In this document: positions 5,343 to 59,894 of the stretch, piece by piece
How positions within the stretch are numbered: the first letter of the stretch is position 1
How the letters are laid out: every line of letters starts with the position of its first letter
From: Eledone cirrhosa
Lineage: Eukaryota
DNA: 64,000 bases
NCBI GenBank assembly: GCA_964016885.1
Contig: OZ024756.1
Span: forward strand, 15,128,001-15,192,000
Direction: 5' to 3'
Made by a program: the position numbers and the translations under genes
Notes under the pieces: model-generated
What the model saw: the letters and a program-made list of their open reading frames with translations, nothing else
Told to the model about the DNA's origin: nothing
Databases searched by the model: none

Positions 5343-7037
5343 TTAACCCCTCTGATACCAAACCTGACCCTTGTTTTATGACACAAAACTGTTTGTTTTA
5401 AAATGTTTGTATTCATCTAAAAACTTCCCTCATAATTTTATGTAAGAACCTTTGTTAAGTTATGTTCCAAACAACCCTCGTTCTGTGATAAAAATAACTG
5501 TTTGTTTAAAAGCGTTTATATTTATCTAAAAACTTTCTACCATAATTTTATGTAACAACCTTTGTTAAGTTATGTTCCAAGCACCCCTGGTTTTACAATA
5601 ACAAACTGTTTGTTAAGTTATGTTCTAAGCAACCCTGGTTCTACAATAACAAACTGTTAAGTTATTTTCAAAGCACCCCTGGTTCTACAATAACAAACTG
5701 TTTGTTAAGTTATGTTCCAAGCACCCCTTGTTCTATCTAAAAACCTTCTACCATAATTCATGTAATAACATTTGCTGGTATGTTCCAAAGACCAGCTTAA
5801 TCACAAGAAAGTTATATTACTAAACATCTCCAAATTTTTTATTATTTACAAAATTAGTTTCTTTCATGAGAAATATGGTAATGAAAGGGTTAATGACATA
5901 TGCAGTGTCTTTCATTAGAAATATGGTAATGAAAGGGCTAACGACATAGACAATGTCTTTCATTAGAAATATGGTAATGGAAGGGTTAATGACATAGGTA
6001 GTGTCTTTCATTAGAAATACGGTAATAGAAGGGTTAATGACATAGGCAGTGTCTTTCATTAGAAATATGGTAATGAAAGGGTTAATGACATAGACAGTGT
6101 CTTTCATTAGAAATATGGTAATAAAAGGGTTAATGACATAGGTAGTGTCTTTCATTAGAAATATGGTAATGAAAGGGTTAACAACATAGACAGTGTCTTT
6201 CATTAGAAATATGGTAATGAAAGGGTTAATGACATAGGCAGTGTCTTTCATTAGAAATATGGTAATGAAAGGGTTAGACATAGACAGTGTCTTTCATTAG
6301 AAATATGGTAATGAAAGGGTTAATGACATAGGCAGTGTCTTTCATTAGAAATATGGTAATGAAAGGGTTAAAGACATAGACAGTGTCTTTCATTAGAAAT
6401 ATGGTAATGAAAGGGTTAACAACATAGACAGTGTCTTTCATTAGAAATATGGTAATGAAAGGGTTAATGACATAGGCAGTGTCTTTCATTAGAAATATGG
6501 TAATGAAAGGGTTAACAACATAGACAGTGTCTTTCATTAGAAATATGGTAATGAAAGGGTTAATGACATAGGCAGTGTCTTTCATTAGAAATATGGTAAT
6601 GAAAGGGTTAACAACATAGACAGTGTCTTTCATTAGAAATATGGTAATGAAAGGGTTAACAACATAGACAGTGTCTTTCATTAGAAATATGGTAATGAAA
6701 GGGTTAATGACATAGGCAGTGTCATCCATTAGAAATATGGTAATGAACGGGTTAAAGACATAGGCAGTGTCTTTCATTAGAAATATGGTAATGAAAGGGT
6801 TAATGACATAGGCAGTATCTTTCATTAGAAATATGGTAATGAAAGGGTTAAAGACATAGACAGTGTCTTTCATTAGAAATATGGTAATGAAAGGGTTAAC
6901 AACATAGACAGTGTCTTTCATTAGAAATATGGTAATGAAAGGGTTAATGACATAGGCAGTGTCATCCATTAGAAATATGGTAATGAACGGGTTAAAGACA
7001 GTCTCTTTTATTAGAAATATGGTAATGAAAGAGTTAA
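5343..7037 (+). mobile_element. piggyBac-like MITE family 2 with 3' terminus amplified as a 48-bp minisatellite (about 5860-7037)
   Basis: Starts TTAACCCCTCTGATACCA; each unit ends TGGTAATGAAAGGGTTAA; single-terminus relatives near 34370-34828 and 35110-35323. Confidence 0.75.
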
Positions 7038-7059
7038 TGCAAATGAAATATTTTCCTAC

Positions 7060-7136
7060 CTGGGTTGTCCGGATTTATTATAGTTGTTTGCTGTCCATTC
7101 ATTTGAATGACCAATTTTGCTTGACGGTCCACCTCC
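7060..7136 (-). CDS. KIF28P: Kinesin-3 motor domain exon 3 (gene continues past left edge)
   Basis: ctgcAG / GTAGG; 77 nt, phase 2 to 1; (R)EVDRQAKLVIQMNGQQTTIINPDNP matches the kinesin-3 'RE....K.II.M.G..T.I.NP' pattern; no next exon found in 1-7059. Confidence 0.9.
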
Positions 7137-7372
7137 CTGCAGTGATCAACACAAGAAAACAAGTGATTATCATTTGATAAAATATTTTTGGATGATTTTC
7201 TCTTTTTTAAATGTAGAGTCATGAGGATTGATTAGTTCCTGCTTACAAACATGTCATTGAGATAGCTGTGACATGATCACGGCTTAAAATATTCATAGCA
7301 AGACTATTAATTAATTTTTATATAGCATATATGATGTACATACATGTTACATGACTTGTGTATGTATTACTG

Positions 7373-7463
<91 letters not shown>

Positions 7464-7474
7464 TATATATGACT

Positions 7475-9100
7475 AATAACATAGACAGTGGCTTTCATTA
7501 GAAATATGGTAATGAAAGGGTTAATGACATAGGTAGTGTCTTTCATTAGAAATATGGTAATGAAAGGGTTAATGACATAGGCAGTATCTTTCATTAGAAA
7601 TGTGGTAAAGAAAGGGTTAATGACATAGACAGTGTCTTTCATTAGAAATATGGTAATGAAAGGGTTAATGACATAGGCAGTGTCTTTCATTAGAAATATG
7701 GTAATGAAAGGGTTAATGACATAGGCAGTATCTTTCATTAGAAATGTGGTAAAGAAAGGGTTAATGACATAGACAGTGTCTTTCATTAGAAATAAAGTAA
7801 TGGAAGGGTTAATGACATAGACAGTGTCTTTCATTAGAAATATGGTAATGAAAGGGTTAAAGACATAGACAGTGTCTTTCATTAGAAATATGGTAATGAA
7901 AGGGTTAAAGACATAGACAGTATCTTTCATTAGAAATATGGTAATGAAAGGGTTAATGACATAGACAGTGTCTTTCATTAGAAATATGGTAATGAAAGGG
8001 TTAATGACAGACAGTGTCTTTCATTAGAAATATGGTGATGAAAGGGTTAATGACATAGACAGTGTATTTCATTAGAAATATGGTAATGAAAGGGTTAATG
8101 ACATAGGCAGTATCTTTCATTAGAAATGTGGTAAAGAAAGGGTTAATGACATAGACAGTGTCTTTCATTAGAAATAAAGTAATGGAAGGGTTAATGACAT
8201 AGACAGTGTCTTTCATTAGAAATATGGTAATGAAAGGGTTAAAGACATAGACAGTGTCTTTCATTAGAAATATGGTAATGAAAGGGTTAAAGACATAGAC
8301 AGTATCTTTCATTAGAAATATGGTAATGAAAGGGTTAATGACATAGACAGTGTCTTTCATTAGAAATATGGTAATGAAAGGGTTAATGACAGACAGTGTC
8401 TTTCATTAGAAATATGGTGATGAAAGGGTTAATGACATAGACAGTGTATTTCATTAGAAATATGGTAATGAAAGGGTTAAAGACATAGACAGTGTCTTTC
8501 ATTAGAAATATGGTACTGAAAGGGTTAATGACATAGACAGTGTCTTCCATTAGAAATATGGTAATGAAAGGGTTAATGACAGACAGTGTCTTTCATTAGA
8601 AATATGGTGATGAAAGGGTTAATGACATAGACAGTGTATTTCATTAGAAATATGGTAATGAAAGGGTTAATGACATAGACAGTGTCTTTCATTAGAAACA
8701 TGGTAATGAAAGGGTTAATGACATAGACAGTGTCTTCCATTAGAAATATGGTAATGAAAGGGTTAATGACAGACAGTGTCTTTCATTAGAAATATGGTGA
8801 TGAAAGGGTTAATGACATAGACAGTGTATTTCATTAGAAATATGGTAATGAAAGGGTTAAAGACATAGACAGTGTCTTTCATTAGAAATATGGTACTGAA
8901 AGGGTTAAAGACATAGACAGTGTCTTTCATTAGAAATATGGTACTGAAAGGGTTAAAGACATAGACAGTGTCTTTCATTAGAAATATGGTACTGAAAGGG
9001 TTAAAGACATAGACAGTGTCTTTCATTAGAAATATGGTACTGAAAGGGTTAAAGACATAGGCAGTGTCTTTCATTAGAAATACAGTGATGAAAGGGTTAA
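7475..9100 (+). repeat. 48-bp minisatellite array 2
   Basis: tgacatagacagtgtctttcattagaaatatggtaatgaaagggttaa, about 34 units. Confidence 0.95.
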
Positions 9101-9164: not shown

Positions 9165-9203
9165 CGCTGGTTGAAAGGCCGGACACGTACTGCTACTTTC
9201 ACA
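9165..9203 (-). CDS. KIF28P: Kinesin-3 motor domain exon 2
   Basis: ttacAG / GTAAGT; 39 nt, phase 2-2; (S)VKVAVRVRPFNQ(R), the canonical kinesin motor N-terminal motif. Confidence 0.92.
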
Positions 9204-16350: not shown

Positions 16351-16364
16351 GATTCTCCCGACAT
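16351..16364 (-). CDS. KIF28P: Kinesin-3 (KIF28/KLP-6-like) first coding exon, ATG to donor
   Basis: ATG TCG GGA GAA TC|GTAAGT; joins the next exon in phase 2 to give MSGES-VKVAVRVRP; possible upstream acceptor (ttttcAG) puts exon start at 16437. Subfamily call from N-terminus only (KIF1/unc-104 not excluded). Confidence 0.8.
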
Positions 16365-19523: not shown

Positions 19524-19528
<5 letters not shown>

Positions 19529-19735
19529 AACGAGTAGGACCCCGACGGCTGAGCTCAAGCCGTTTCGACGGCTATTTCTGGACAAAAGTAAGAGTTTAGT
19601 CCAGAATTAGCCGTCGAAACGGCTTGAGCTCAGCCGTCGGGGTCCTACTCGTTCCTATTACCCACTCTACTACCCTAAGTATTGAGTACTCTGGTGCGTT
19701 ATGGTCCACCTGGTTCCTTACCACATTTCCTACAT
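19524..19735. mobile_element. (TA)n-embedded fold-back element, copy 1
   Basis: About 60-bp inverted arms plus 75-bp tail ttacccactctactaccctaagtattgagtactctggtg. Confidence 0.75.
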
Positions 19736-20250: not shown

Positions 20251-20674
<424 letters not shown>

Positions 20675-20737
20675 GGTCGCTTATATTTATGGTACGTCAA
20701 AATTATTTAAATTATTTATAAAACTGTTTATATATTG

Positions 20738-20803
20738 TATTTTATCTGACGAAGGCATGCCATATTTTTAATATGGTATCCCTGAAATATGTATAATGAA
20801 ATA
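20738..20803 (+). ncRNA. Type I hammerhead ribozyme motif
   Basis: Stem I UAUUUUAU/AUGAAAUA, CUGACGA, long stem II, GAAA, short stem III, AUA triplet. Confidence 0.65.
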
Positions 20804-20843
20804 AATATGGTTTTATAAATATAATTTCCATTTGTTTAATATC

Positions 20844-20900
<57 letters not shown>

Positions 20901-21032
20901 CAAAGAGTTATTTAATTTGTTGGTTATTCAACAAATTTGTTTATAACAGATTCGAAGCACTCTACAATATTTCTTCTGGAGTATAATATCAATAATATTA
21001 ATAAATGGAAACCATCTTTATAAAACCATATT

Positions 21033-21095
21033 TATTTTATGATATATATTTCAAGGGTGGCAACATTTTTTGGTACGCCCTCATCAGATAAAATA
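21033..21095 (-). ncRNA. Type I hammerhead ribozyme motif (inverted relative, imperfect stem II)
   Basis: UAUUUUAU-CUGAUGA-GGG...CCC-UU-GAAA-UAUAUA-UC-AUAAAAUA. Confidence 0.5.
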
Positions 21096-21159
21096 CAAAA
21101 GTTGTTTTATAGATAGTGACATATCCAAGAAAGAATAAGAACCTATCGTTTTAACTTGT

Positions 21160-22563
21160 GTCTACCACCATCACCACTACCTCTACCATCACCTCTACCA
21201 CCACCACCACCTCTACCTCTACCATCACCACCTCTACCACCACCACCACCACCTCTACCACCACCACCTCTACTACCACCTCTACCACCACTACCACCGC
21301 AAACCTCTACCTCTACCACCACCACATCTACCACCACCACCACTTCTACCACCACCACCTCTAACTCAACCACCACCACTACCACCGCAAACCTCTACCT
21401 CTACCACCACCACCCCTGCCACCACCACCACCTCTACCACCACCACTACTACCAACATCACCACCACCTCTACCACCACCTCTACCACCACCACCACCAC
21501 CACCACTACTACCACTACCACCACCTCTACCACCACCACCACTACTACCACCACCTCTACCACCATCACCACCTCTACCACCACCACCACTACTACCAAC
21601 ATCACCACCATCTCTACCACCACCACAACCACCTCTACCATCACCTCTAACACCACCACCACCACCACCACCTCTACCACCACCACCACCACCACTACTA
21701 CCACCACTACCACCACCACCACTACTACCACCACTACCACCACCACCACCACTACTACCACCACCACCACCTCTACCATCCCCACCACCACCACCACCAC
21801 CACCACCTCTACCACCACCACCACTTCTACCACCATTTCTACCACCATCCCCACCACCAGCACCACCACCTCTACCACCACCACCACCACCACCACCTCT
21901 ACCACCACCACCACTTCTACCACCACCTCTACCACCACCACCACCTCTACCATCCCCACCACCACCACCTCTACCACCACCACCACTACTACCAACACCA
22001 CCACCACCACCTCTACCACTACCACCACTTCTACCACCACTTCTACCACCATCCCCACCACCAGCACCACCACCTCTACCACCACCTCTACCACCACCAC
22101 CACCACCACCTCCACCACCACCTCTACCACCACCACCACTACTACCATCACCTCTACCATCCCCACCACCAACACCACCAATATCTATATGTATGTATGT
22201 GGCTATGTATATATATGTGTGTGTATGTGTATGTGTGTGTGTGTGTGGCTATGTAAATACGTATATATGTATGTATGTGGCTATGTATATATATGTGTGT
22301 ATGTATGTATGTGTGTGTGTGTGTGGCTATGTAAATATATATATGTATGTATGTGGCTATGTATATATATATGTGTGTATGTATGTGTGTGTGTGTGTAT
22401 GTGTCTATATATATGTGTGTGTATGTATGTGTGTTTGTGGCTATGTAAATATCTATATGTATGTATGTGTCTATGTATATATATATATGTGTGTGTGGCT
22501 ATGTAGATATATGTGTGTGTGTGTGTCTATATATATATATATGTGTGTGTGTGTGTATGTGTC

Positions 22564-26166: not shown

Positions 26167-26287
26167 AGAGTTGGAAATAGAAACTAAAGAGTGATGAGAG
26201 GAAGGAACGGGGAAAAAGAGGAAAACAAATTGGGGATAAAAAAAAACACACGTGCGTATTCAGTCGCTGATCTTGGAGAGTATGTGC

Positions 26288-26366
<79 letters not shown>

Positions 26367-26369
<3 letters not shown>

Positions 26370-27862
26370 TGTCATACCCAAAGACTGGTGCAGCAGTATT
26401 CTCATAAATTGCTACAAAGGTAAATGGGATGCTCTAGGGAGGAGCAATTATAGGGGCTTAAAGCTGATGGATCAGGTTATGAAAGTGGCAGAGAGAATAT
26501 TAGCGCAACTGATTAGAGAAAGGGTCAAATTAGATGAGATGCAGTTTGGTTTTGTGCCCCGGAAAAGTACAACAGAGGCCCCCTTCTTAGTGAAGCAACT
26601 ACAAGAGTTGTTAGAGAAGAATAAGCCACTATACTTAGCTTTTGTTGACCTAGAGAAGGCCTTTGATAGGGCACCCCGATCTGTCATCTGGTGGTCCCTA
26701 AGGAAACTAGGTATAGAGCAATGGCTTGTGAGGACAGTGCAAGCTATGTACAGGAGTGCTGTCAGTAAAGTGAGAGTAGGCATGGAGTTTAGTGAGGAAT
26801 TCCAGATACAAGTAGGTGTACATCAGGGTTCGGTCCTCAGCCCGCTCTTGTTCATTATAGTCCTCCAAGCCATAACAGAGGAGTTTAAGACTGGATGCCC
26901 ATGGGAACTTCTCTATGCTGATGATCTCTATAGCAGAATCAATAGAGGAGCTAGAGAATAAATTCTGGCTATGGAAACAGCAGTTGGAATCAAGAGGACT
27001 GAGAGTAAACCTAGCTAAGACAAAAGTGTTGATAAGTAGAAGAGAGGACAATACTCCGATTCCATCAGGGAAATGGCCATGTTCGATATGTAGAAAAGGA
27101 ACTGGCATAAATTCCATAAAATGTACGCAATGCAGATCTTGGGTATACAAGAGATGTAGTGGGATAGCAGGCAAACTAACAGGTAGGGAAAACTACGTAT
27201 GCAGTAGATGTACAGGGAAAGTTGGCAGTAGTAATCGCAGTGATAGACACATTTTTCCAATGCAGGTGAGTGCTATAGAAGTGTTTGATAGCTTTCTGTA
27301 CCTAGGTGATCAGATTAGCATGGGAGGGGGGGGGTCCAAGGCTATACTATCTAGAATAAGGACGGGTTGGAAGAAGTTTAGGGAGCTTCTTCCTCTGTTG
27401 ACAAAGAAGGGTTTCTCCCTGCGTACGAAAGGACGGTTATATGATGCCTGTGTGAGATGCTGCATGGTAGTGAGACATGGGCAGCAACTGTGGAAGATAT
27501 GCTCCGTTGGATGTGCAATGCCAATGTGCGTGAACGACCAAGCATAGACGAGTTGAGAAAGAAACTGGGTATAAGAGGGATAAGTTGCGGTGTGTAGGAG
27601 AGAAGGCTGAGATGGTATGGACATATGATGCGCGTGGAGGATGACCGCTGGGTAAAGAAGTGCCAAGAAATCCGAGTAGAACGAAGACGCGGTAGAGGTA
27701 GACCACGAAAAACATGGGTGGAGGTGGTGAGAGCAGACCTCAGATCGCTGAAACTCATGGTGGAGATGACGAAGGACCGTGACAAGTGGAGAGATGATGT
27801 GCTGAATAGGACCCGCCCAACCCTTGCAAGCAGGGAAAAGCGGACGTAAAATGATGATGATA
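26367..27862 (+). mobile_element. 5'-truncated, frameshifted RTE-type LINE with RT and internal PHD-like Zn finger
   Basis: NYRGLKL, QFGF, FVDLEKAFD, GVHQGSVLSPLLF, LLYADDL, GLRVNLAKTK, CSIC..C..C.SW...C..C..C, RRLRWYGH, RGRGRPRKTW; (ATG)n tail. Confidence 0.93.
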
Positions 27863-28211
27863 ATAATATATATCATCACTTAACGTCCATCTTCCACGTT
27901 GGCATGGGTTGGACGGGTTTGTCCCACTTGAGGCAAGATTGGTCGGGTGACCATGTCTCGCTCGTACAGAACTGTTTCTGGCAGATTTTCTACGGCTGGA
28001 TGCCCTTCCTAACACCAACCACATTTACAGCCTTTTTACCGTGTCTCCTACACAACCGCTTTATAGTGTGGACTGGGTGCTTTTTGTTGTGTCACCGACA
28101 CAAAGGACGGAAATGGGGGGATGGGGCGGGGGTGTGGGGTGTATATTGAGTTAAGAAGTGCCTACTGATTATAGGTTTAAGTTCGTACGTAACCCACAGT
28201 CAGAAGGCACC

Positions 28212-28279
<68 letters not shown>

Positions 28280-28389
28280 TTATCCGAAATAGATTTAATT
28301 AAATTAAATTAAAGGAGTCATGTCCGAGACATGCGCCATATCCACCGTAGAATAAGCTCAAAGATTCCAATGAATAGATCCGAGCATTT

Positions 28390-28656
28390 TATATCAACTA
28401 GAAATTGATTGACATATATATATATTTAAAATAAACACATGAAACAATCACAGGGGATAATTTGTAAAGTGTGTAATCACACACAAAAAAAAAATAATCA
28501 CACACAAAAAAAGGTAATATTTGAAACTCTAGTTAAACTTTAATTAGTTACCTACCTAGCTGTGTGTGATTACACACTTTACAAATTATCCCCTGTGATT
28601 GTTTCATGTGTTTATTTTAAATATATATATATGTCAATCAATTTCTAGTTGATATA
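28390..28656. repeat. About 96-bp perfect inverted repeat with 75-bp spacer
   Basis: 28390-28485 is the reverse complement of 28561-28656. Confidence 0.9.
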
Positions 28657-28685: not shown

Positions 28686-29219
<534 letters not shown>

Positions 29220-29351
29220 TAAAATAACAGATTAAAGTTGATTCTTTGCTTAAACTTTAATCTGTTATTTTAATAAATATTTGCTCTACGGTTCTTATAT
29301 ATTTGATATATATTTATCCTTATCGAGCCCTCTTTGGATTTTAGTCTTCAA

Positions 29352-40570: not shown

Positions 40571-40709
40571 CGCACGTGTGTATGAAAAAACGAAAACATC
40601 AATGACACAGTACATGGAAGAAATATATTAGTTAGTTTAACGCTTGAAATAGCAGGAAGAGAGTCTTAACGGATGATGTGCTCATGCGAGAGATTGGCTA
40701 AGATCTTTT

Positions 40710-41377: not shown

Positions 41378-42054
41378 ATTCTATCTTCTGAAGGAGGACC
41401 AGACTGAGAAAAAAGATGAAATAGAAAGTTAGAAAAGGAAAGAACAGATAAAAGTTGTGTATTCAGTCAGCCATTTTGGGGGAAAAAATAAAACATAAAT
41501 TTTAAATATATTGTATTTTATTAATTTATTTATTCTAAATTAAAATCATTCTCTCTCGAAAGAGAGAGATGTGTGTGTATATATACATATATATATATGG
41601 TGAGAGAGAAAGAGAGGGATATGTGTGTGTGAGTGTGTGTGTCTATACATATATGCACACACACACACATATGTATCTATGTATGTAGATATATCGACAG
41701 TCGATCGACAAAAATCGCAGACCTCATTCACTTAACGAGTGGGATGGAGCTCATCAAATCTGACTGAGGAAACAACGTTTCCATTTGTCTTTCCAATCGC
41801 TAATACTATATCGATCGCAAATGCAGGCAGAAGGAGCAACGTGAAATAAAGTGTTTTGCTTAAGGACGAGACGCATCGCCCGGTCTGGGAATCGAAATCA
41901 CAACCTCACGATTGTGAATCCAAGTCTCTAACCACTTAGACATGCGCCTTCACAGATATATATACATATATCAGATAGGGTGTGGTAAAAACTAACTAGA
42001 CCATAACCCACCAGAGTACTCAATACTTGGGGTAGTAGAGTTAGTAATATATTA

Positions 42055-44140: not shown

Positions 44141-44223
44141 TTAATAGTTATAAAGAAGACTCATCGCCTCGGCTGCTTTGCCTCTCACTTGCGATGATGG
44201 ATCTTTCAAAAGGTCGATTAACG
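44141..44223 (-). CDS. MROH1: MROH1 terminal coding exon
   Basis: Long T tract, ttctAG acceptor, phase 1; (A)LIDLLKDPSSQVRGKAAEAMSLLYNY*, resembling the MROH1 C-terminus LLKDP..VR..AAEA. Confidence 0.92.
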
Positions 44224-48889: not shown

Positions 48890-49959
48890 CAGGGTCGAAT
48901 TTTAATAATTCAGATTTAAATTATTGGGTGAGAGAGGAAACGACTGAAGCTGTGTCCATTCTATTTGGTAAACTTTGTTAAAAAAATTATATATATATGA
49001 TGAAGGACTAGCGTCCGAAATGTTAAGACCCTCTTCCTGCTATTTCAAGCGTTAAACTAATATATTCCTTCCATATACTGTACCGATTGTGTTGTTTTTT
49101 CTGTTTAGCTTTTACATACAAATATATATATATAGAGAGATATATATATATATAAATGTATGCATAGTATATTTGGCAATATACCGTATGTTTAATTAAA
49201 AACCTTTTGAAGACCTTACACTATCATTTTAAAGTAGTGACTGTGTCACTTCTTTTCGGCGAAAGAAGGCAGAGAAGCCAACAGTCTGTTTCATGCTGTT
49301 TGGCAATCATCAGAGCTATGTACTGCCCTCTTCTGCTGAATATTATAGAAGCTGGATTCCGATAGAATTCCAGTAATAATCAGGAGCTGATTATACAAAA
49401 ATTAAGTATTAGGATTGGTGCTCTGAAATAGCGATGTAGTCACATGAATAACCATGTAACAGAAATATATATAATGCAATAAACAATTAAGGTGATTTAA
49501 ATTTCTGTTACATTATTCATGTGACTTCATCAGATGCTTATGCAATCATTGGTGCAGTTATGTATTTTCGGTTTGTATTTTTTCTTAATTTATTCTTTTA
49601 AATTGTGTCTGGCAAACCCTATCGTTCATAGTTAGTATTTTTTTCACCCTAGCAAATCTGGTCCCCTACGATTGAAACACATATGTATATATCTGTGTTT
49701 ATCTCTCTTTTATATTCAATTATAAATACATACATATTCATTTGTCTTATGTGTTTTAATTTTCTGAGTGCAACTTGTATATAAGTGTGTGTATAAGTGT
49801 GTGTATAAGTGTAAAGATTGTGGTTAGTTGGTGACACTATGACAGTGACAATGACAGGACTGCAATAGTGACTATAACAGTGACTACGACAATGACAAAC
49901 TAAAGCTTTCATCACACACCATTAACACAACTGGCAATAGGAAATAAGCTGCAAAGGTG

Positions 49960-52422: not shown

Positions 52423-52464
52423 CTGAAAAAGCAAAACAGAAAACCTTGAAACACCTGTTCTGGT

Positions 52465-53508
52465 TTTAACCCTTCCATTTCCATATTTCTAATGAAAGAC
52501 ACTGTCTATGTCATTAACCCTTTCATTACCATATTTCTAATGAAAGACACTGTCAATGTCATTAACCCTTTTACTACCATATTTCTAGTGAAAGACACAG
52601 CCTGTCATTACCATATTTCTAATGAAAGACACTGCCTATGTCATTAACCCTTTCCTTACCATATTTCTAATGAAAGACACTGCCTATGTCATTAACCCTT
52701 TCATTACCATATTTCTAATGAAAGACACTGTCTATGTCATTAACCCTTTCCTTACCATATTTCTAATGAAAGACACTGCCTATGTCATTAACCCTTTCAT
52801 TACCATATTTCTAATGAAAGACACTGCCTATGTCATTAACCCTTTCCTTACCATATTTCTAATGAAAGACACTGTCTATGTCATTAACCCTTTCCTTACC
52901 ATATTTCTAATGAAAGACACTGCCTATGTCATTAACCCTTTCCTTACCATATTTCTAATGAAAGACACTGCCTATGTCATTAACCCTTTCATTACCATAT
53001 TTCTAATGAAAGACACTGCCTATGTCATTAACCCTTTCATTACCATATTTCTAATGAAAGACACTGTCTATGTCATTAACCCTTTCCTTACCATATTTCT
53101 AATGAAAGACACTGCCTATGTCATTAACCCTTTCCTTACCATATTTCTAATGAAAGACACTGTCTATGTCATTAACCCTTTCCTTACCATATTTCTAATG
53201 AAAGACACTGCCTATGTCATTAACCCTTTCCTTACCATATTTCTAATGAAAGACACTGCCTATGTCATTAACCCTTTCATTACCATATTTCTAATGAAAG
53301 ACACTGTCTATGTCATTAACCCTTTCATTACCATATTTCTAATGAAAGACACTGCCTATGTCATTAACCCTTTCCTTACCATATTTCTAATGAAAGACAC
53401 TGCCTATGTCTTTAACCCTTTAGATAAATATAAACACTTTAAAATAAACAGCTTTCTATGGTAGAACCAGGAGTGGTTTCAGATGGTTTGGTATTGAAAG
53501 GATTATAA
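52465..53508 (-). repeat. 48-bp minisatellite array 3 with attached MITE family 2 5' end, in MROH1 intron
   Basis: Reverse complement of the same unit (about 20 copies); 53420-53508 resembles the reverse complement of 5343-5420. Confidence 0.9.
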
Positions 53509-59134: not shown

Positions 59135-59224
59135 TGAGTGTGAGTGTGTGTGTCTTCCATAGTTTGATGATGATGATGCTAAACATGGTGACCAAAGACT
59201 GACCAACTAAACCAACCACCATAC

Positions 59225-59413
59225 CTTCTCGAAACATGGACGAATTTTCAGGATGACGTTGATAAGGATGGATCGTATGTCTTCCTCATCAATGACCGAC
59301 ATGACACGAGACAGTCCACCCATAGCCTCCATGGTGATGCTGTCATTGATGTCCTCTTTGTCATCCAGACCAGACATCAGAGCCGACAGGACAGTTGTGG
59401 AATATTTCTGGAT
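59225..59413 (-). CDS. MROH1: MROH1 exon
   Basis: aAG / GTATG; 189 nt, phase 0-0; IQKYSTTVLSALMSGLDDKEDINDSITMEAMGGLSRVMSVIDEEDIRSILINVILKIRPCFEK. Confidence 0.92.
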
Positions 59414-59894
59414 CTTTCATTGTAGAATGGACAAAGAGAGAGAGAGAGATGAAATAGAAGTAAAGAAGATTTAACTCTGCATCATAACACCACCACACCA
59501 CACCATACCTTAACATCATAACATCACCACATCATACCTTAACATCATAACACCACAACACCACACCTTAACATCATAACACCACCACACCACACCATAC
59601 CTTAACATCATAACATCACCACACCATACCATCATAACACCACAACACCACACCTCTATATCCAACATCACAACTACATCACAACACCCAACATCACAAC
59701 TCTACATCACAATATACCACAACACCTAACACCACAACTCTACATCACAACACAACACTACGCCATACCACAATATCCAACACCACAACTCTACATGACA
59801 ACACCACAACACCACGCCATACCACAATATCCAACACCATAACTCTACATCATAACTTCGCATTCAGCATCATAGCTCTACACGAAACTTATAT

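Follow-up and report, generated by a model that had tools for sequence, protein, structure and literature searches.

The window, that is, the whole stretch of 64,000 nucleotides of Eledone cirrhosa DNA analysed here, contains two type I hammerhead ribozyme motifs that face each other across a (TA)n tract. On one side of them, an exon at 59210-59416 (minus strand) matches MROH1 of Argonauta hians with 98% identity, which places the host among the octopods; read by eye, the exons resembling MROH1 end near 44144-44220 on the same strand. On the other side, also by eye and on the minus strand, we found exons at 16364-16351 (with the ATG), about 9165-9200 and about 7070-7135, which, judged by a motif, are probably those of a kinesin-like gene. 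The kinesin domain had no Pfam match among the 235 open reading frames of the window (at least 55 aa, low-complexity frames dropped). The pair and its surroundings comprise the following features, given with the basis of each:

20583..20672, no strand: (TA)45 tract, 5' of the plus element (sequence, pair table)
20673..20844, plus strand: element of subfamily P, ~172 nt ((TA)n tracts on either side; 3' end equal to the commonest family end)
20713..20821, plus strand: extended stem I with a distal 15-bp helix, in which 20713-20727 pairs with 20807-20821 beyond an internal loop (pair table)
20738..20803, plus strand: type I hammerhead motif, intact (descriptor, shuffles, pair table)
20845..20898, no strand: (TA)27 tract abutted by the 3' ends of both elements, likely a shared insertion target (sequence)
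20899..21132, minus strand: element of subfamily M, ~234 nt (fall in depth almost to that of single-copy DNA beyond ~21132, bridging contigs)
21033..21095, minus strand: type I hammerhead motif, decayed (descriptor, pair table, folds, contig variants)

The original prediction of an opposed type I pair flanking (TA)n was confirmed for both motifs, with the tract 20845-20898 between them. The core elements CUGANGA, GAAA and NUH are present in both, their stems I and II are arranged as in type I, and only these 2 of the window's 23 CTGANGA sites pass a type I descriptor; the stem I and core proposed for the minus copy were recovered by the same search at 21095-21033. Three sites matched a looser descriptor, the additional one lying at 26166-26129; 200 shuffled windows (block-wise, dinucleotide-preserving) gave 0.035 matches on average and 1 at most. 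The strict class to which both copies belong (stem I of at least 8, stem II of at least 5) was produced by none of these 200 shuffles. Moreover, when aligned over 109 columns (20735-20842 versus 21098-20995; E 6e-18 within the window), the two copies share 78% identity.

That the motifs are chance matches within AT-rich DNA is hardly conceivable. The region is indeed strongly AT-rich, a similar pattern was matched once by chance in a bacterial contig, and Rfam had no hammerhead match, either in the whole window at the gathering score or among the 14 matches obtained for 20600-21250 up to E 10. The Rfam models are nevertheless a weak test here, because the textbook minimal motif at 26166-26129 was missed as well. 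Against chance stand the empty strict class in the shuffles and, as described below, a family core that does not vary and stems that covary; a chance origin of the motif itself is already refuted. When the family pattern was searched in viral contigs, there were no matches. The sole metagenome-contig match (L001) is bacterial, lies beside a methyltransferase-like frame and has an unpaired stem II, and it was set aside as a chance match. A scan for sigma-70 promoters, irrelevant for animal DNA, stayed at chance level.

The third match represents another hammerhead family, unrelated to the first and of the classical minimal type of Penelope-like elements (PLEs), present at 26166-26129 (minus) and as remnants at 48998-49048 (plus) and 40644-40671 (minus). 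It has a stem I of 5 bp, a stem II of 4 bp, a 4-nt palindrome and a GUU site, and its remnant at 48998 begins within the core, directly after a short TA run.

The plus copy has the core that had been claimed for it, with an 8-bp stem I, followed by CUGACGA, stem II and GAAA, and a cut predicted after 20795 at an AUA triplet. Its stem II is paired at 13 of 14 positions, the exception being a C-C mismatch at position 4 (20756/20780), and its palindromic stem III occupies 20787-20794. The extended region folds with a z of -3.95, equalled by 0 of 200 shuffles, and the hammerhead fold of the monomer is predicted at -10.3 kcal/mol. In the minus copy we found a stem I of 8 bp, CUGAUGA, GAAA, an AUC triplet with a predicted cut after 21041 and a palindromic stem III at 21049-21042. 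Its stem II is paired at 8 of the first 11 positions, pairs 7 and 8 being broken (21059, 21060). The predicted fold includes a distal stem I helix matching that of the plus copy; it is no better than shuffles (z -1.05), and the monomeric hammerhead is predicted at +3.2 kcal/mol.

In both copies the eight bases of stem III from A15.1 to U16.1 are fully self-complementary. This palindrome, the distal extension of stem I and the partly broken stem II of the minus copy go beyond the original prediction. Pairing of A15.1 with U16.1 in the monomer has predicted probabilities of 0.0006 and 0.0002 in the two copies, and the 8-mers are predicted to pair weakly, whether like with like or plus with minus (-2.2 to -3.2 kcal/mol). 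Palindromic stem III of a dimer type is described for PLE hammerheads (PMC4209133; review PMC6765202), and the 8-nt palindrome of both copies is of this design. Cleavage by the plus copy is predicted to be feasible in a dimer, whereas an impaired function is predicted for the minus copy.

Copies of the same family are abundant in sequencing runs of this and other organisms. Contigs from 4 of the 11 runs listed were aligned at 80% likeness on the minus copy alone (20899-21162), organism E (X8) and the RAD-seq runs lying outside this comparison. No RNA run was listed as a carrier of the family, which has no bearing on its expression. Run X1, which comes from the same organism and may be the window's own sample, gave 4,525 contigs; in the runs of organisms B, C and D, 3, 6 and 2 contigs matched, respectively. 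The summed depth in X1, which is not a copy number, is 4.8e5 over the core, with a peak of 2.8e6, against 8-23 beyond 21142. Dividing this depth by ~10 and by up to 31 for overlap, a rough reckoning would put the family at thousands to 1e5 copies.

Among the contigs on the minus copy, no core variants at 5% or above were listed in CUGAUGA (21081-21087) or GAAA (21049-21052). Variants in stems I and III at 21037, 21038 and 21045 (23-30%) are A-to-G changes opposite U that keep the pairing. In the majority letters of the family, 10 of the first 11 stem II positions are paired, and the exception is the same C-C mismatch at pair 4, which is kept in both subfamilies. From the plus copy to the minus majority, three pairs of stem II change on both sides (pair 2 from G-C to A-U, pair 5 from A-U to G-C, pair 11 from U-A to A-U) and pair 7 on one side, from G-U to A-U. 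These letters are depth-weighted contig majorities and are unlinked; a 37-contig loose-end consensus at 21058 agrees with them. Additionally, loose ends bearing the P-type stem II were found in both X1 and organism B. The plus and minus copies are of different subfamilies; stem II covaries between these, and the fold is conserved in the family. Core conservation and stem covariation among copies, whose absence was named in advance as part of what would refute the original prediction, were both found, the covariation from unlinked majorities.

Compared with this family, the minus copy is an outlier. It differs from the depth majority of X1 at 21059 (97%) and 21060 (95%), which are the two broken stem II pairs, and also at 21041 (99.8%) and 21079 (84%). 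The cut-site triplet of the family is by majority AUA, as in the plus copy, against AUC in the minus copy of the window. Since its two broken pairs are intact in 95-97% of the family depth, the minus copy has decayed and the family fold has been kept; an assembly error at 21059, 21060, 21041 and 21079 is a possible source of these oddities. The suggestion that structure rather than sequence is retained therefore holds for the family, with its paired and covarying stem II, and fails for the minus copy of the window, with its two broken pairs and a z of -1.05.

The element ends provide a second line of information. In X1, the best-supported 3' loose-end clusters lie at 20986 (36 contigs), 20995 (40) and 21000 (14), all of them AT-rich; those at 20986 and 20995 run into TA repeats, the consensus agreement of the three clusters being only 0.55-0.73. 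A contig of organism B likewise enters a TA repeat at 20995. The main 3' ends of the family lie ~40-55 nt past the cut site and are followed by (TA)n, and the 3' end of the plus element is the equivalent of this commonest end (minus-copy 20986-21000). A minority form is ~95 nt longer at the 3' end and is TA-terminated too (organism C contig, 20909). The corresponding extension of the minus copy, 20899-20995, is common to other family copies, including those of organisms C and D, and in records 5 and 6 of X1 non-identical contigs join it to the 3' side of the hammerhead. This extension is predicted to form hairpins, one of them with a variable middle (20963-20973). Both window copies have the hammerhead near a defined 3' end that abuts (TA)n; their 5' ends differ, at ~65 versus ~37 nt before stem I. 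No go-back joint of the kind expected from head-to-tail arrays was present among the X1 loose ends listed, no tandem copy was found within the window, and X1 yielded one opposite-strand joint.

The palindromic stem III, the TA-flanked 3' ends and the existence of a family support the proposed link to the type I hammerheads of PLEs and retrozymes. The motifs are hammerhead sequences of one very abundant family in an octopod genome and, in our opinion, are probably 3'-terminal stubs of a TA-targeting PLE that inserted twice independently, on opposite strands, in the same TA tract. The RT/GIY-YIG endonuclease of such an element would nick AT-rich DNA, and copying of the element RNA would begin at a fixed distance beyond the cut site, 40-55 nt and more rarely ~135 nt. 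Reverse transcription would end early, leaving stubs of ~170-230 nt that contain the hammerhead. Because (TA)n is its own reverse complement, insertion would be random in orientation and some tracts would come to contain two copies tail to tail. The hammerhead of the parent element would trim multimeric or read-through RNA, cutting slowly as a dimer through its palindromic stem III and perhaps with the assistance of protein.

Several properties described for PLEs are in line with these steps. PLEs are strongly 5' truncated, their hammerhead lies close to the 3' end, and several clades show a preference for (TA)n (PMC8557442). A PLE protein cleaves both strands of AT-rich DNA and begins reverse transcription at two internal sites; the hammerhead of the element cleaves only with the protein and is dispensable for insertion in vitro (PMC11167929). 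In cephalopods, Hydra-1_Obim of Octopus bimaculoides has a (TA)n preference and a hammerhead at 2403 of 2507 nt (PMC8557442), and recently active PLE families occur in O. vulgaris (PMC13282606). Octopus PLEs are thus known (PMC13282606, PMC8967140), and the word ribozyme is absent from the available portions of both texts. Five motifs from the window had no match in the supplement of Craig et al.; since this contains consensus sequences of the octopus Hydra and Naiad elements, the parent family must be a different one.

The window itself contains little that could be a coding partner. No Pfam match to the GIY-YIG domain was obtained among the 235 open reading frames, and the only RVT_1 match lies 5 kb from the pair, beside a PHD finger. 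This is a broken LINE at 26188-27879 (plus), with an RT domain at 26188-26958 (E 4e-19) and the PHD finger, and it is probably of the RTE type. As an RT/GIY-YIG partner was not found in the window, the PLE clade of the stubs is something that we infer.

A coding remnant is missing beside either window copy, and this is also what would be seen if the copies were self-standing non-autonomous mini-elements of ~170-240 nt, SINE-like or solo units of a non-LTR retrozyme, which are transcribed and cut, may form circles, and reach TA tracts as copies made by a PLE enzyme acting in trans. We regard this as possible, if rather doubtful. Both copies are short and have a closed extended stem I, suggesting a compact structured unit; copies are very numerous, with a structure that covaries between subfamilies; and solo retrozyme monomers akin to PLE terminal repeats have been described (bioRxiv 10.64898/2026.07.22.740005). 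However, retrozymes are defined by tandem units, whereas no go-back joint was listed among the 4,525 contigs and the 3' ends enter TA. The differing 5' ends, at ~65 and ~37 nt before stem I, are moreover as expected of random truncation.

Truncated PLE stubs would also account for the opposed layout noted in the original prediction. We found no support for a special meaning of this layout. The copies come from separate subfamilies, and hammerhead pairs on opposite strands, 100-700 bp apart, are already published (PMC4209133). Within the window alone, 47 (TA)n tracts reach eight units or more. With an assumed genome of 2-3 Gb, the number of tail-to-tail pairs expected by chance per genome is ~6-200 at 1e4 to 5e4 copies and less than 1 at 2,000. 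Chance therefore suffices for the pair if the family is as large as it appears. Other long inverted repeats adjoining TA tracts were seen by eye at about 28380-28650 and 29215-29285. Long palindromic hairpins with a common ~60-nt tail lie at 19524-19718, 20304-20525, 28699-28848, 28976-29149 and 41999-42049; they mostly adjoin (TA)n or (GA)n, and their spacers vary in length with arms still complementary. As a guess, this family is MITE- or Helentron-like. Additionally, a tandem repeat of ~40 bp forms two arrays of opposite orientation, at about 5870-9100 (plus) and 52460-53420 (minus), by eye.

The pair might instead descend from one old inverted insertion, a PLE copy with its inverted partner, whose arms have since diverged, and we consider this very unlikely. 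PLEs do often build inverted-repeat structures (PMC8557442), hammerhead pairs on opposite strands at 100-700 bp are on record (PMC4209133), and X1 has its single opposite-strand joint. Nevertheless, the partners described stand at the 5' end of the unit and not tail to tail, the 3' ends of the two copies are unequal in length, and what distinguishes the copies is a set of compensatory changes that reappear in other places as traits of the subfamilies.

Read-through RNA across both copies is predicted to form 77-81 base pairs between them. In this hairpin, stem I of the hammerhead has a predicted probability of 0.0 on either strand. The convergent layout would hinder cleavage in cis, because the modelled transcript pairs the copies together and loses stem I. 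The pairing could be taken to favour an adoption by the host, in which the pair cuts or, as a long dsRNA hairpin editable by ADAR, dampens read-through or upstream transcripts near the kinesin gene, and the minus copy has the orientation of both the kinesin and the MROH1-like gene. We find this reading extremely improbable. The same hairpin is predicted to abolish stem I, the minus copy has decayed relative to the family, and such pairs are expected by chance at this copy number. As for the position attributed to the pair, just upstream of a kinesin promoter, it is upstream; "just" does not apply, since 4.4 kb containing microsatellites and other repeats separate it from the predicted ATG at 16364 (minus), a distance that also speaks against a host role. 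No support was found for a tie to that promoter, and most likely the pair does nothing for the host.

Considering the known hammerheads of PLEs, those of the Hydra clade (PMC8557442) are the closest in appearance. Both are of type I, with a palindromic stem III of 3-4 bp and little or no loop; the published table (File S2) has stem III of 3-4 bp, loops of 0-3 nt and often an A at the cut site. An extra base often stands at each side of the foot of stem II, the motifs lie ~100-200 nt from the 3' end, (TA)n is targeted and Octopus is among the carriers. On the other hand, stem II has 10-13 bp here, with the conserved C-C mismatch, versus 3-7 bp there; the distal stem I helix distinguishes the present family, and it has no sequence match in the supplement of that paper and no linked RT/EN frame. 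Membership of that clade we infer by analogy from these features.

The minimal hammerheads of PLE pseudo-LTRs (PMC4209133) share with the family the CUGANGA/GAAA core, the palindromic positions 15-16, thousands of scattered solo copies that fall into covarying consensus families, pairs on opposite strands at distances of 100-700 bp, and U-rich 5' and AU-rich 3' flanks. They differ in having mostly a 4-nt palindrome and a stem I of 3-5 bp, versus an 8-nt palindrome and an 8-bp stem I with distal helix in our copies, and a stem II of ~3-8 bp versus 10-13 bp. Non-LTR retrozymes (PMC7229834; bioRxiv 10.64898/2026.07.22.740005) are similarly non-coding, AT-rich, intergenic and of high copy number, with a type I hammerhead whose stem III is weak. 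Unlike them, the family is without tandem units in the window or among the listed joints, and without a 4-bp stem II and the canonical geometry of loop 1 and loop 2.

In the available portions of the literature found, cephalopod hammerheads amount to 235 Rfam matches in the giant squid (PMC6962438) and, in octopus, one PLE motif and one half core (PMC8557442). A long stem II with a fixed C-C mismatch together with a two-part stem I is absent from the published hammerhead tables compared. The family was not described in the literature found, a search that left Repbase and Dfam outside and in which the dimer-cleavage variants of Lunse et al. may already include this architecture. The PLE-type hammerhead is a known kind, and the family itself is apparently not described.

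A more far-reaching view, which we hold to be unlikely, would make the family an octopod-wide non-autonomous mini-element of thousands to perhaps 1e5 copies, invisible to Rfam. In it, the ribozyme would have a hitherto undescribed architecture: the conserved C-C mismatch at position 4 of the 10-13 bp stem II, at the usual place of loop 2, would dock on the internal loop of stem I and replace the loop-loop contact, and inverted pairs would supply dsRNA for the A-to-I editing of cephalopods. Extensions of stem I with an internal loop are described as helping newt hammerheads (PMC6155905).

Returning to the PLE stubs that we consider probable, the locus is most likely a place where two mobile elements left remains, and its added value lies in a very abundant family of octopod hammerheads that Rfam misses, with natural covariation and a long stem II. 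If the family cleaves, it would offer a test case for the dimerisation of PLE hammerheads and for the replacement of loop 2 by an internal mismatch.
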